The notes below the pieces were generated by a model. That model was not told where the DNA came from and did no database searches. It worked only from the letters and a program-made list of their open reading frames with translations. Of a stretch of 64,000 bases of DNA, positions 285 to 59,664 are shown piece after piece. The stretch's first letter is position 1. Each line of letters opens with the position of its first letter. The stretch is from an uncultured Pirellulales bacterium. Lineage in GTDB: Bacteria > Planctomycetota > Phycisphaerae > Sedimentisphaerales > Anaerobacaceae. The stretch is taken from contig CAZOFX010000003.1 of the NCBI GenBank assembly GCA_964579055.1, positions 39,551 to 103,550 of the forward strand. Reading direction: 5' to 3'. The translations under genes and the position numbers were made by a program.

Positions 285-2081
285 TCAGGCCGACGGCTTC
301 GCCGGCTTTCGGGCCCTGCGCTGTGCCAGGCCGACGACGGCGGGCACGACCAGGACCGTGACGAACGCGACCGCACAGCCGGTGTCCAGCCACTGGCCGC
401 GACGGCTGTAGAACGTCACCCTGCTGTCTATCGGCATTTTTTCGAGGAACCATCCGGATAGGCCGGTTCGTTGCATTGCTTGAGGAGGGAGCCCCTCGCT
501 CGATGCGATCGGGGCGCTGCGGATGCGGCCGGAAGAATCGATCAGGCAACTGATGCCTGTGTTGACGCTGCGCAGCACGGGAAGTCGGTTTTCCACCGCT
601 CGAAACACGCAAATGGCAGCGTGCTGGGGCAGTTCGGCGCTTGGGATCACGCGGGGCGGCTCGTCCAGAAAGCGGACGAACCAGCCGTCGTTGCTGATAT
701 TCACGAGCCAGTCGATGCGTTTTCGGCCCTTCTTATCGAGGGCGAAATTCCTGGCGACGTACGGGATTGCGTCCTCATAACAAATGATGGTGCCGAAGTG
801 ATACGTCGATTCGGACGTTTGCGGTGCGGCGTTCGGCTCGGCGCCGCGAATCGGCGTGGTCATTTCATAGACGGTGTAGTGTGTGCCGCGTTCAAGCGAA
901 TAATCGTAGTTGTATTCCTCCGGGGCGAAACGCTTGAGCTGCTGGTAAAGCCAGTTGAAGCTGCGGCGGAAGGGGATGTACTCGCCGAACAGGACCAGGT
1001 GGATCTTGTCGTAGCGGTTCGGGTCCTTCGTCCCATCGGGCCGATAAAGATAGGCCGCGTTGTACTGGCCTACGTAAAGCTTGTCTTGGGGGTCCTTCAT
1101 GATCTCGCCGCCGTAGGCGCCGACCAGCAAATAGGCGGTGTCCTTGGCGTGAGCGATCAAGGCCTCGTGGAAGGCCCTGTCCTCATTGGGGTCCTCAAAG
1201 TAGCGCCAAAGCTCGGGTTGGAGATAAGCCTGAACCATCGTTTCGGGCCAGGCGATCAACTCGGCGCCGGCCGCCGCAGCCGCCCGGCTCATCTCCAGCA
1301 GCTCGGCGAACAACTCATCGCTGGCCGCGTGGCTGATCTTGACCGACTGGGGCACGTTCGACTGAAGCGCCGCCACCAGCGGGCCGTCCGTGATGACCTC
1401 GGCCGTCTGCCTGATGCGCCAGTGCCCGTACAGCCACGTTGCGACCACCATTATTGCGACAGAGGCGATGAGTGGCAGCCTCAAGCGCAGCTTGGGGATG
1501 GCTCCCGGCACAGGCCATCCCCAAAGCCTTCGGCTTTGAGGCTGCCACAAGCCTGCCGTCCGCCATGCGATCCAATCCACAAGGACGCCGTTGACCGCCG
1601 CGACGACGAACGAGACGCCCGCGACGCCAAAGAGGTCGGCGATCTGGATCAGCGGGAGGTTGGCGTACTGGCTATGCCCCAGTAGACGCCAGAAGAAGCC
1701 GCCCAGCGGAAAGCCCTGGAGCCGTTCGGCGCCGACGACCAGAATGGGCAACGCCAACGCCATTGGGATGTTCCAGGCCCTGCAGAAGCGGATCGCCAAT
1801 GCCAGCAGGGGCCAGAGCAGGGCCAGGTAGACGCCCATCGCAAGCCAGCCGGCAATGGTGATTGGCGCGATCCAGCAGATGTTTGCCAGCCAGTAGATCG
1901 TGCCGACAAGCCAAGCCACGAGCGCCAGCGTTCGCGGTCGCACTTCGGGCCGGCACGCCAGGGCGAACGGCCCCATCGCCGCCCACGCGAGGAACGACCA
2001 ATCGACGGGCGCCTGGATCACGCTCAGCAGCACCGCCGAGGCGGCCAGCGGAACCACCAAAGACAATACCTTCCTGGTCAT
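285..2081 (-). CDS. lnt: Apolipoprotein N-acyltransferase
   Basis: N-terminal multi-TM region plus CN-hydrolase domain: WPET, YDKIHLVLFGEYIPF, ICYEDA, ISNDGWF, FRAVENR, RSVNTGIS. Confidence 0.96.
   Translation of the reverse strand: MTRKVLSLVVPLAASAVLLSVIQAPVDWSFLAWAAMGPFALACRPEVRPRTLALVAWLVGTIYWLANICWIAPITIAGWLAMGVYLALLWPLLALAIRFCRAWNIPMALALPILVVGAERLQGFPLGGFFWRLLGHSQYANLPLIQIADLFGVAGVSFVVAAVNGVLVDWIAWRTAGLWQPQSRRLWGWPVPGAIPKLRLRLPLIASVAIMVVATWLYGHWRIRQTAEVITDGPLVAALQSNVPQSVKISHAASDELFAELLEMSRAAAAAGAELIAWPETMVQAYLQPELWRYFEDPNEDRAFHEALIAHAKDTAYLLVGAYGGEIMKDPQDKLYVGQYNAAYLYRPDGTKDPNRYDKIHLVLFGEYIPFRRSFNWLYQQLKRFAPEEYNYDYSLERGTHYTVYEMTTPIRGAEPNAAPQTSESTYHFGTIICYEDAIPYVARNFALDKKGRKRIDWLVNISNDGWFVRFLDEPPRVIPSAELPQHAAICVFRAVENRLPVLRSVNTGISCLIDSSGRIRSAPIASSEGLPPQAMQRTGLSGWFLEKMPIDSRVTFYSRRGQWLDTGCAVAFVTVLVVPAVVGLAQRRARKPAKPSA
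1472..1548. repeat. Four-way-junction palindromic element, copy 1 (in frame inside lnt)
   Basis: Perfect 13-bp outer arms gtggcagcctcaa/ttgaggctgccac, inner arms ttggggatggc/gccatccccaa; matches copies at 16327 and 58437. Confidence 0.9.
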
Positions 2082-16326: not shown

Positions 16327-16443
16327 GGGTGGCAGCCTCAAGCGAAGCTTGGGGATGGCGGACCTCTCTGTGGCATAGATGGCAGGAGAAACCTCAAGGT
16401 GTTGAGCCATCCCCAAACGCCAAGGCGTTTGAGGCTGCCACCC
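16327..16443. repeat. Four-way-junction palindromic element, copy 2
   Basis: 15-bp perfect outer stem gggtggcagcctcaa/ttgaggctgccaccc, 11-bp inner stem, two side hairpins. Confidence 0.9.
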
Positions 16444-57477: not shown

Positions 57478-58422
57478 ATGACGCAGCACCCGCTGGATTC
57501 GAAGAACATGCACAACGATTACAGTCGCCGGCGTTTCCTCGGCGCAGCGCTGGCCGGGGCAGGGGCTTTGGCGGTTCGCCCGGAATGGCTCTCGCCGGGC
57601 GTTTCGGCAGCAGCCACGGGCCGGCGGACCGCGACCGATATTGTGACGCTGGGCAAGACGGGTATCAAGGTCTCGCGCCTCGCCCAGGGCACCGGCTACA
57701 ACGGCACCGGCCGCTCCTCGGCCCACACGCGGCTGGGCGAGAAGGAGTTCGACAAGCTGATTCACCACGGACTCGACCGGGGTATCACGTTCCTGGACAT
57801 GGCCGACCTGTACGGCTCGCACCCTTACGTGCGCCACGCGCTGGACGGCCGAGCGCGGGACAAGATCGCCTTTCTGAGCAAGATCTGGCCCGAGACGCAG
57901 TACTGGAATGCCTTTTCCGGCGGCGCCAAGCCCGAGATCGACCGCTTCCGACGGGAACTGGATACCGACGTAATCGACATCTGTCTGATGCACTGCATGC
58001 GAAACAGCCGGTGGCCCGAGGAACACAAGCGAGTCTGTGACGAATTGGACGAGCTGAAGGCCAAAGGCGCGGTCCGGGCGGTGGGGGTATCCTGTCACGA
58101 CCTCGGCGCTCTAAAGGTCGCCGCCACACATCCCTGGACGGACGTGATCCTGGCGCGGATCAATAACGCCGGCCGCGACGCTGCCATGGACGCGTCAGTC
58201 GAGGAGGTCGTGCCTGTCCTCAAACAGGCCAAGGCCAACGGCAAGGTGATCATCGGGATGAAGATCTTCGGAGCCGGCGCACTGACCCGTCCCGAGCAGA
58301 AGGATGCCTCGCTCCGCTTCGTCTTCGAAAACGAACTGGTCGACGCCATCACGGTCGGAATGCTGAGTACCGAGCAGGTCGACGACACCATCGCCCGGAT
58401 GAACAAGGCCCTGAACGCCTGA
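57478..58422 (+). CDS. Aldo/keto reductase (Tat signal)
   Basis: SRRRFL; TLGKTGIKVSRLAQGTG; DMADLYG; GMKIFG. Confidence 0.92.
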   Translation: MTQHPLDSKNMHNDYSRRRFLGAALAGAGALAVRPEWLSPGVSAAATGRRTATDIVTLGKTGIKVSRLAQGTGYNGTGRSSAHTRLGEKEFDKLIHHGLDRGITFLDMADLYGSHPYVRHALDGRARDKIAFLSKIWPETQYWNAFSGGAKPEIDRFRRELDTDVIDICLMHCMRNSRWPEEHKRVCDELDELKAKGAVRAVGVSCHDLGALKVAATHPWTDVILARINNAGRDAAMDASVEEVVPVLKQAKANGKVIIGMKIFGAGALTRPEQKDASLRFVFENELVDAITVGMLSTEQVDDTIARMNKALNA

Positions 58423-58436
58423 TCGCGGATTGCCCC

Positions 58437-58518
58437 GGGTAGCGGTCTCAAGTCCGAACGATTTGGGGATGGTTCTCAAGGTTGAGCCATCCCCAAGCTG
58501 CGCTGGAGGCTGCCACCC
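58437..58518. repeat. Four-way-junction palindromic element, copy 3 (reverse orientation, degraded)
   Basis: Reverse complement gggtggcagcctccagcgcagcttggggatggctc...ccatccccaaatcgttcggacttgagaccgctaccc. Confidence 0.85.
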
Positions 58519-58550
58519 ATTGATCGATCTGCAGCCTTCTGCGTAACCGT

Positions 58551-58576
58551 CAATCATCAATTATCAATTATCAATG
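58551..58576. repeat. 7-nt periodic repeat overlapping proB stop
   Basis: caatcat caattat caattat caatg. Confidence 0.65.
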
Positions 58577-59664
58577 AAGACAATGTCTTCCGGGATGGCG
58601 ACAACGTCGCGGTGACTCGGACCAAGCAGGGCTTTGATCTCGGTGCTGTGTTTGCCCGCCAGCGTCTTGAGCTGCACGGAGGACAGGCTGGTGACCGCTT
58701 TGGCGGCGCCGTTGAGCAGGACGACGTCGCCGGCCTGGAAATCGCCCTCGACCGAAACAACGCCGGAGGGCAGCAGGCTCTTGTGATTCCGCAGCGCCTT
58801 CATCGCGCCGTCGTCGATGCGCACTGTTCCGGCCGGGCGGCTGTTGATGATCCACCGCGCGCGATTGCTGAGCTTGCGTTTGGGAAGGAAGATCGTGCCG
58901 ATCTCCTCACCCGCCACGATCCGGCCGATCACGTCTCTGGCTCGACCGTTGGCCAGAACGAGCCGGCATCCCGCCTGGGATGCGATTCGCGCCGCCTCGA
59001 TCTTGGTCTTCATCCCGCCGGTGGCGTGCCGGCTGCCCGAGCCGCCCGCGTTGCGGACGATCTCCTCGGTGATCTCGAAGACCGCGGAGATCGGCCTGGC
59101 GTCGGCGTGATCGTTGGGGTTCTTGTCGTAGAGCGCATCGATGTCGGTCAGCATGATCAGCAGGTCCGCGTCGATTTTGCTGGCGACCAGCGCGCTGAGC
59201 TTGTCGTTGTCGCCGAACGCGGTGCCGATCTCGGCGGTGCTGATGCTGTCGTTCTCGTTGAGGACCGGGACGATGTTCAGACTCAGCAGCGTCTCGATCG
59301 CGTTGCGCAGGTTCAGGTACGTCTTGCGGTTGCTCAGCACCTCAGCCGTCAGCAGGACCTGGGCGACGGTGACGCCGTGCCGGAGGAAGGCCTTGCGGTA
59401 TTCCTGCATCAGCAGGGGCTGGCCGATGGCGGCGCAGGCCTGGCGCATCTTCATGTCCTTGGGCCTGGTGGAAAGCGCCAGTTGCCCGGCGCCCATGCCG
59501 ATGGCGCCGGAGGTGATGATGACCACCTGCCGGCCGGCCTGGAGCAACGAAGTGACCTGCGAGGCAACCCGCCGGAAGTACGCCGCATCGATCCCCGTGT
59601 CCTTGGTCAGCGTGTGCGTCCCGATTTTGATGACGATCCGTCTTGTCTTGCTGAAATCTCTCAT
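58564..59664 (-). CDS. proB: Glutamate 5-kinase
   Basis: IVIKIGT, TSGAIGMG, AAIGQ, NENDSI, FGDNDKLS, TGGMKTK, C-terminal PUA domain. Confidence 0.97.
   Translation of the reverse strand: MRDFSKTRRIVIKIGTHTLTKDTGIDAAYFRRVASQVTSLLQAGRQVVIITSGAIGMGAGQLALSTRPKDMKMRQACAAIGQPLLMQEYRKAFLRHGVTVAQVLLTAEVLSNRKTYLNLRNAIETLLSLNIVPVLNENDSISTAEIGTAFGDNDKLSALVASKIDADLLIMLTDIDALYDKNPNDHADARPISAVFEITEEIVRNAGGSGSRHATGGMKTKIEAARIASQAGCRLVLANGRARDVIGRIVAGEEIGTIFLPKRKLSNRARWIINSRPAGTVRIDDGAMKALRNHKSLLPSGVVSVEGDFQAGDVVLLNGAAKAVTSLSSVQLKTLAGKHSTEIKALLGPSHRDVVAIPEDIVFIDN

Follow-up and report, generated by a model that had tools for sequence, protein, structure and literature searches.

A dispersed palindromic repeat of probable transposon origin lies in frame within the apolipoprotein N-acyltransferase gene of an uncultured planctomycete lineage

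The window analysed here, a stretch of 64,000 nucleotides (contig C3, positions 39551-103550), belongs to G000, a 5.66-Mb metagenome-assembled genome (MAG) of an uncultured Sedimentisphaerales lineage, which comprises 197 contigs at 62.6% G+C, is 92.6% complete and has contigs that break at the repeats described below. On the minus strand, at 285..2081, lies lnt, an intact open reading frame (ORF) of 598 aa for apolipoprotein N-acyltransferase (Lnt), and inside it, at 1472..1548 and in frame, a self-complementary element of 77 nt without a stop codon. An earlier model reading of the letters alone (the original prediction) had pointed to this element, and we could confirm it. It is a perfect nested palindrome, GTGGCAGCCTCAA-GCGCAGC-TTGGGGATGGC-TCCCGGCACAG-GCCATCCCCAA-AGCCTTCGGCT-TTGAGGCTGCCAC, with an outer stem of 13 bp, an inner stem of 11 bp and two small side hairpins. 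The arms of the outer stem, GTGGCAGCCTCAA at 1472..1484 and TTGAGGCTGCCAC at 1536..1548, pair with each other according to both sequence and fold, while the inner stem, TTGGGGATGGC with GCCATCCCCAA at 1492..1524, closes a loop of 11 nt. The side hairpins lie at 1483..1493 (AAGC-GCA-GCTT, with a GNA triloop) and, from sequence and family comparison, at 1523..1537 (AAAGCC-TTC-GGCTTT, with a TNC triloop). As RNA the element folds with -55.7 kcal/mol (z = -5.7), a stability reached by none of 200 shuffled sequences. Searching the window with the 31-nt left half at up to 3 mismatches yielded 3 matches, compared with 0 in 100 shuffles. The intergenic copies that had been predicted at 16327 and 58437 were both recovered between long ORFs, one as a long form of 113 nt at 16329..16441, the other as a copy of 78 nt at 58439..58516, which has a degenerate left end (GTAGCGGTCTCAA) and begins 17 nt past the stop codon of the ORF at 57478-58422.

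The element begins at base 3 of codon 178 and ends at base 1 of codon 204, with W179-P203 encoded wholly by it. The peptide of residues 178-204 reads LWQPQSRRLWGWPVPGAIPKLRLRLPL, as the original prediction had written it, and includes WQPQSRRLWGWPVPGAIPK. Pfam assigns LNT_N to residues 15-165 (99 bits) and CN_hydrolase to residues 236-531 (68 bits), leaving the insert between the two domains. In a phmmer comparison, residues 73-171 align with residues 88-187 of E. coli Lnt and residues 218-542 with residues 210-481, and the 46 residues 172-217 face only 22 residues (188-209) of the E. coli protein. Since structure prediction from the single sequence was unusable (predicted local distance difference test, pLDDT, of 39.6), it was replaced by an AlphaFold model on an alignment of 12 orthologues, which reached a pLDDT of 71.7 and a predicted template modelling score (pTM) of 0.76. 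Its top 24 Foldseek matches are all Lnt structures, including those of E. coli and P. aeruginosa, with target-normalised TM-scores of 0.65-0.73. The model shows a helix at 153-176, a coil at 177-197 (block-mean pLDDT 33-39; below 50 throughout residues 177-199) and a helix at 198-229 leading to the nitrilase domain. The insert is thus placed by the model between transmembrane helices 6 and 7 (TM6 and TM7), in a coil predicted with low confidence, which agrees with the earlier suggestion of a loop between hydrophobic segments of a conserved membrane enzyme. In the E. coli Lnt structures of 2017, the TM6-TM7 loop reportedly lies on the cytoplasmic face and the active site on the periplasmic face.

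Despite this insert, lnt looks functional from its single copy, conserved triad and low ratio of non-synonymous to synonymous substitution (dN/dS). Only one full-length lnt match exists in the G000 genome, and an alignment of 12 orthologues shows no variation at the triad positions E280, K359 and C434. The same insert is found in an independent MAG, G012, and is therefore not an assembly artefact; of the 4 substitutions that distinguish the G012 copy, two weaken the inner stem. Between the G000 and G012 genes, both with the insert, dN/dS is 0.134 at a dS of 0.30, which indicates purifying selection on lnt while it carries the element. Within the element itself, 2 synonymous and 3 non-synonymous changes separate the two genomes, too few to interpret selection on its nucleotides. 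The broken gene that the original prediction had allowed for was accordingly not what we found.

We refer to the 77-nt repeat family of G000 lnt, which is GTGG-tagged, as type A, and to a second family of the same genus, a GTAG-tagged repetitive extragenic palindrome (REP), as type B. The family census covered G000 and 12 other genomes of the genus as well as genomes outside it, a complete copy being defined as two paired ends with at most 2 mismatches each, and unpaired ends being counted at up to 1 mismatch. The 13-mer end of the element, GTGGCAGCCTCAA, occurs 102 times exactly in the G000 genome, compared with 0 for a control read backwards. G000 holds 48 complete copies and 46 further unpaired ends, several of them at contig ends. 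The copies fall into a short class of 76-79 nt (n=7), to which the lnt copy belongs, and a long class of approximately 110-125 nt, in which asymmetric extra arms lie outside the palindrome, whereas short copies are devoid of such arms. Each half carries a small hairpin between outer and inner stems, which is hypervariable (more than 20 stem sequences across the family), nearly always perfectly paired and mostly closed by a GNA triloop, so that the whole element would form a four-way junction. The tag is GTGG in nearly all copies, with G at position -2 in 93 of 96 ends, and is separated from the small hairpin by 7 nt; a conserved GGGGATGG box also surrounds the hairpin. Each of the 12 other genus genomes has 2-245 exact type A ends, compared with 0-7 per genome outside the genus, and the family is confined to the genus. 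A search of the window and of eight full-length copies against Rfam matched no family.

The extra arms of the long intergenic copies start with GTGTGTGTG. They are conserved and asymmetric in several such copies (G000 C66:16480-16880, C26:33760-34160, C111:7980-8370 and others), one arm reading gtgtgtgtgaaaaCATCCTGGCATGxGT and the other gtgtctgtgcagatttcacggcaagccccattcaggCGTAGAGAGC or a CATTGAAGCGTCyGG variant, which extends the full unit to approximately 190 nt. For these copies with their arms, Rfam holds no family either. One long copy (G000 C58:4773-4884) provides the last 11 codons and the stop of an upstream ORF of 659 aa (...SARGSLKRSLGMVD*).

A partner gene of the family was found in sister genomes. 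In G012, an ORF of 186 aa is preceded at 58 nt by a left half (GGGTGGCAGCCTCAA-hairpin-TTGGGGATGG) and followed at 22 nt by a right half (CCATCCCCAA-hairpin-TTGAGGCTGCCACCC); it scores 97.8 bits (cut-off 80) on NCBIfam NF047646, 'REP-associated tyrosine transposase' (RAYT), and 29.9 bits on Pfam Y1_Tnp. Its score on NF033573, the IS200/IS605 family, is 17.3 bits vs a cut-off of 55, so that membership in IS200/IS605 and its PATE derivatives was rejected. The match of this RAYT to the E. coli TnpA-REP structure 4er8 is weak in sequence (E = 0.0057). G010 contains a gene 80-81% identical to the G012 RAYT with type A halves on both sides; G003 a gene 65% identical with ends GTGGCAGCGGCAAG.../...CTTGCCGATGCCAC; and G006 two RAYT copies nested likewise between ends GTGGCAGCGTCAAG.../...CTTGACGCTGCCAC. 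The gene is therefore found exactly between left and right halves at five loci in four genomes, occupying the position of the inner stem and loop of the short form, and the ends co-vary with the subfamily of the RAYT, as expected of a cognate pair. Since the RAYT is nested between the same halves, the 77-nt element can be read as the two ends of this unit, joined by an 11-nt loop in place of the gene. From these comparisons, it appears to be a REP doublet forming a hairpin (REPIN), a pair of inverted REP units whose autonomous, RAYT-carrying form resides in sister genomes. The G010 gene is itself broken near its 3' end by another inverted-repeat element of approximately 270 nt (L103, G010:C8, ~1918-2200), bounded by inverted repeats GAAGATTTCCGGGCGAGG / CCTCGCCCGGAAATCTTC that resemble the long arm of the intergenic type A copies.

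Several traits of type A are shared with REPIN-RAYT systems as defined by Bertels & Rainey 2011 (PMC3116915, PMC3337134), namely two inverted REP units forming one long, stable hairpin, many and mostly extragenic copies (43 of 48 in G000) and a cognate RAYT flanked by the same units (G012, G010, G003 and G006). Type A differs in its GTGG tag, the 7-nt linker, the GGGGATGG box, the hypervariable hairpin stem and the four-way junction, as well as in its host. With IS200/IS605 elements and their PATE derivatives it shares a Y1/HUH transposase between hairpin-forming ends and deletion derivatives that keep the ends only; there, however, left and right ends are distinct, while type A ends are mirror images of each other. 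Intragenic REP pairs with GTAG/CGTC tags, encoding 20-30 aa, have been described in members of several phyla, among them the PVC bacterium Opitutus terrae (Di Nocera, De Gregorio & Rocco 2013, PMC3733652); the same work reports different REPs at one recB site in Xanthomonas and GTGG as the majority tag form of the O. terrae GTAG-20 family. Rickettsia palindromic elements (RPEs) are, as summarised in PMC10969869 from Ogata et al. 2000, palindromic repeats in frame in conserved proteins at places compatible with the fold. Type A resembles them in behaviour, adding a peptide segment in frame, and the comparison claims no membership: RPEs are approximately 100-150 bp long with a large intragenic share, in contrast to the 77 nt and 5 of 48 intragenic copies of type A, which has an identifiable RAYT and belongs to another phylum. 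The RPE-like insertion that had been proposed is in this sense supported, with a dispersed repeat family apparently read through in a loop of a conserved enzyme. In-frame insertions of REPs and RPEs have been published before; our literature search found no paper on Sedimentisphaerales repeats and no description of this repeat family, which itself is a new example.

Comparison of the Lnt loop across orthologues shows that the extension is a property of the genus. Helix 6 ends with a VNG motif and the nitrilase domain starts with a GP(L/M) motif; these two motifs are 70-85 aa apart in 10 of 10 orthologues of the genus and 53 aa apart in at least 9 orthologues from outside it. The original prediction had expected an indel of about 26 aa among relatives: orthologues outside the genus are indeed shorter at the insert site, but by 17 residues, and all ten of the genus are extended. 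A recognisable palindromic repeat is present in nine of these ten loops, of differing families. G000 and G012 carry type A; G001, G002, G008, G009 and G010 carry an inverted pair of GTAG-tagged hairpins of type B (CGTAGGGTGTGCATTGCACACC ... GGTGTGCGGTGCACACCCTACG); G003 and G004 carry a mix of a type A half and type B-like hairpins; and the loop of G007 is long without a clear palindrome. The type A half in G003 and G004 is the reverse complement of the G000 3' half at 29 of 30 positions, and its orientation hence differs between lineages. The type B copies in lnt also carry stem-breaking changes. Type B, too, is a REP family and has a RAYT of its own: in G010 and G001 it flanks another Y1_Tnp gene, of 195 aa, from which one unit is 111 nt away on the upstream side and inverted units approximately 200 nt on the downstream side. 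These RAYT units lie at 1390-2400 of L111 (G010:C1) and at 1014-2600 of L096 (G001:C361), with inverted GTAGGGTGTGCNNTGCACACC hairpins. In a tree of Lnt with the loop masked, the genus has two main branches, both of which include type B, whereas type A is restricted to the clade of G000, G012 and G003 and to G004; type B therefore probably came first in the lnt loop.

Outside the genus, an AT-rich palindrome with 7-nt periodicity occupies the lnt loop of G018 (+16 aa) and of one more MAG (+9 aa), and one further MAG has a loop longer by 44 aa. The G018 palindrome is made of inverted TAGAATTNAGAATT 7-nt periodic arrays and is a low-copy repeat, with 13 matches vs 2 for a control. Judged from these sequences, the TM6-TM7 loop of Lnt appears to be a recurrent landing place for palindromes. 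Homing of REPs into REPs was considered as a cause of this hotspot and rejected, since GTAG-tagged REPs were observed within 40 nt of type A ends only 2 times vs 1.5-12 expected; tolerance of the loop explains the hotspot better.

The lnt copy is not the only one within a gene. A codon-usage score on both flanks picked five G000 copies inside one continuous coding frame, all of them in frame and stop-free, while 43 of the 48 complete copies lie outside credible coding frames. The five are the lnt copy (77 nt, contig C3); a copy of 77 nt in a zf-HC2 / DUF4139 protein (C2), an old insert present in ten genomes of the genus, whose right half is decaying in several; one of 93 nt between two ABC-2 permease halves (C6); one of 78 nt in squalene-hopene cyclase (C74), where the site is filled in eight genomes and empty in four, with a net gain of 20 aa; and one of 77 nt in a 678-aa protein without Pfam match (C111), filled in G000 and G003 and without the insert in at least 6 other genomes of the genus. 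The last two genes thus offer clear empty sites in relatives. At the cyclase site, two sets of genomes, G008, G009, G010 and G001 on the one hand and G000, G003, G005 and G012 on the other, carry copies that share their boundaries but encode different peptides. When one of the two copies is reverse-complemented, they agree at 68 of 80 positions ungapped, compared with only 57 of 80, with gaps, when both are aligned as they stand, pointing to either an in-place inversion or a second hit in opposite orientation. Four of the 7 short copies in G000 are intragenic and none of the long ones. The description of the family as 'coding-tolerant' in the original prediction therefore holds in part: five in-frame intragenic copies exist, but they are 5 of 48, and with 4 of 6 reading frames open through the element, the number is near chance expectation for DNA of this G+C content. 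Most of the family is extragenic, and it is not especially tolerant of coding positions. Further in-frame 77-nt copies are present in sister genomes (L115, G010:C7, 2298-2374; L117, G001:C519; L116, G012:C412); one sister-genome copy lies just upstream of a Walker-A-like motif (GGGKT) in what, judged by eye, resembles a terminase-type ATPase gene, and another in what resembles the gene of a 4Fe-4S cluster protein.

Taking these data together, we regard it as likely that a RAYT-derived REPIN became fixed in lnt and is read through in a permissive TM6-TM7 loop, with the enzyme remaining functional. The element would be a non-autonomous mobile palindrome of inverted REP units and a short loop, derived from a RAYT (Y1/HUH) unit, and the RAYT would mobilise it as single-stranded DNA by analogy with E. 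coli TnpA-REP. A 77-nt copy would have been fixed in the loop-coding part of lnt, at the latest in the common ancestor of G000 and G012. As both its total length and its frame suit the coding sequence, translation most likely continues through the insert; Lnt would gain approximately 25 disordered residues on its cytoplasmic side, well away from the active site in the periplasm, and remain functional. Within the genus, the permissive loop probably received a type B pair first and the present family later, and an unrelated AT-rich palindrome seems to have entered the same loop in another genus.

Some observations weigh against this account. An empty lnt site is present in no genome of the genus, so that insertion into lnt is deduced from the outgroups and from the behaviour of the family elsewhere. 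This type of RAYT was not found in the G000 assembly, where tblastn with the G012 RAYT gives one stretch of 30% identity, and current mobility in G000 is hence unproven; the absence is weak evidence, because the MAG is incomplete and breaks at these very repeats. Among seven stretches of G000 between type A ends 260-6000 nt apart, the five that were read by eye, without a family scan of their ORFs, apparently hold ordinary genes and no autonomous copy. G005 likewise gave no RAYT match despite 140 ends in 40 contigs, and RAYT presence stands in no clean relation to type A copy number, with fragmented MAGs again making absence weak evidence. The type A tag is GTGG, while the canonical tag is GTAG. 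Finally, the C111 gene was compared between orthologues L053 (G003:C60) and L062 (G012:C135): the empty site reads GGTGTGGCA^TCG and the filled site in G003 GGTGTGGCA...GGTGTTGCA, a 9-nt direct duplication in which the left copy is the element's terminal GTGGCA. It is the sole informative duplication site and is ambiguous; a duplication footprint of 9 nt is not expected of IS200-type Y1 transposition.

This duplication, together with ends that are inverted repeats and the extra arms of the long intergenic copies, would fit a conventional miniature inverted-repeat transposable element (MITE) of a DDE-type insertion sequence (IS), with terminal inverted repeats and target-site duplication and with the nearby RAYT genes unrelated to it. 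We consider such an origin extremely improbable, since the RAYT sits exactly between the halves at all five loci with ends co-varying with its subfamily, and no transposase ORF was recognised in the five stretches of G000 read by eye (not scanned with a family library). Neither a target-site duplication of fixed length nor a parent IS was found; the sole duplication overlaps the element end, and only a RAYT lies between such ends.

Two other readings concern what the element does in lnt rather than where it came from. The hairpin might be kept for a function of its own, for instance as a ribosome pause at the TM6/TM7 boundary aiding membrane insertion, with palindromes recruited convergently. 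Its very stable fold and the palindromes in nine of ten genus orthologues and at least 2 outside lineages, from three unrelated families, agree with this idea, but most orthologues outside the genus keep the 53-aa spacing and no hairpin, the two G012 substitutions weaken the inner stem uncompensated, type B copies have stem-breaking changes, the G007 loop is long yet without a clear palindrome, and the same elements occur in unrelated soluble proteins, which renders it very unlikely. That the insertion inactivated lnt or is untranslated, through cleavage of the mRNA at the hairpin or skipping of the segment, appears highly improbable: RNase III could plausibly cut a perfect hairpin of 77 nt, but the ORF is intact and the sole copy, the triad is conserved, dN/dS is 0.13 since the G012 split, and all 5 of 5 intragenic copies are in frame and stop-free, as skipping would not require.

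Read-through of a RAYT-derived REPIN in a permissive loop could be carried further, to the idea that sites such as the Lnt TM6-TM7 loop and the cyclase site are long-lived docking sites at which REPIN families swap or flip in frame, an extension that we consider doubtful. If true, a stretch of an essential enzyme would be rewritten over and over by selfish palindromes, and the mRNA hairpin at the helix boundary might have a selected role. The lnt insert would in any case represent a well-documented case, from an uncultured planctomycete lineage, of selfish palindromic DNA that has been incorporated into a conserved membrane enzyme, with an identifiable mobile system, a RAYT with matching ends, probably behind it, and of a single protein loop apparently rewritten repeatedly by different repeat families. 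For annotation, it implies that a lineage-specific loop insert in such genomes should first be compared with the repeats of the same genome, and only then be given an adaptive reading. For REPIN biology, a four-way junction with hypervariable yet always paired side hairpins could reveal what the RAYT recognises.

A few additional repeats and transposase genes were noted in passing. The Y1_Tnp genes of G000 are without flanking type A. Two near-identical Y1-transposase-like genes of 238-251 aa, at C130:11730-12065 and C9:63054-63386, share an upstream CTAGGGACAGTCACCTA; the C130 gene is followed by an inverted partner, TAGGTGGCTGTCCCTAA, and the C9 gene is preceded by a run of 7-nt GGTAACT repeats, neither being linked to type A. 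Other palindromes are abundant in G000, among them AGGGGCGAAT, the core of GTAGGGGCGAAT(A/G)AT(C/T)ATTCGCCCCTAC (n=203), and GGGGCGAGGCATGCC (n=40), and GTAGGG[GT] tags number 687 genome-wide. In the window, a 7-nt periodic repeat, tcaatcatcaattatcaattatcaatg, occupies 58545-58580.

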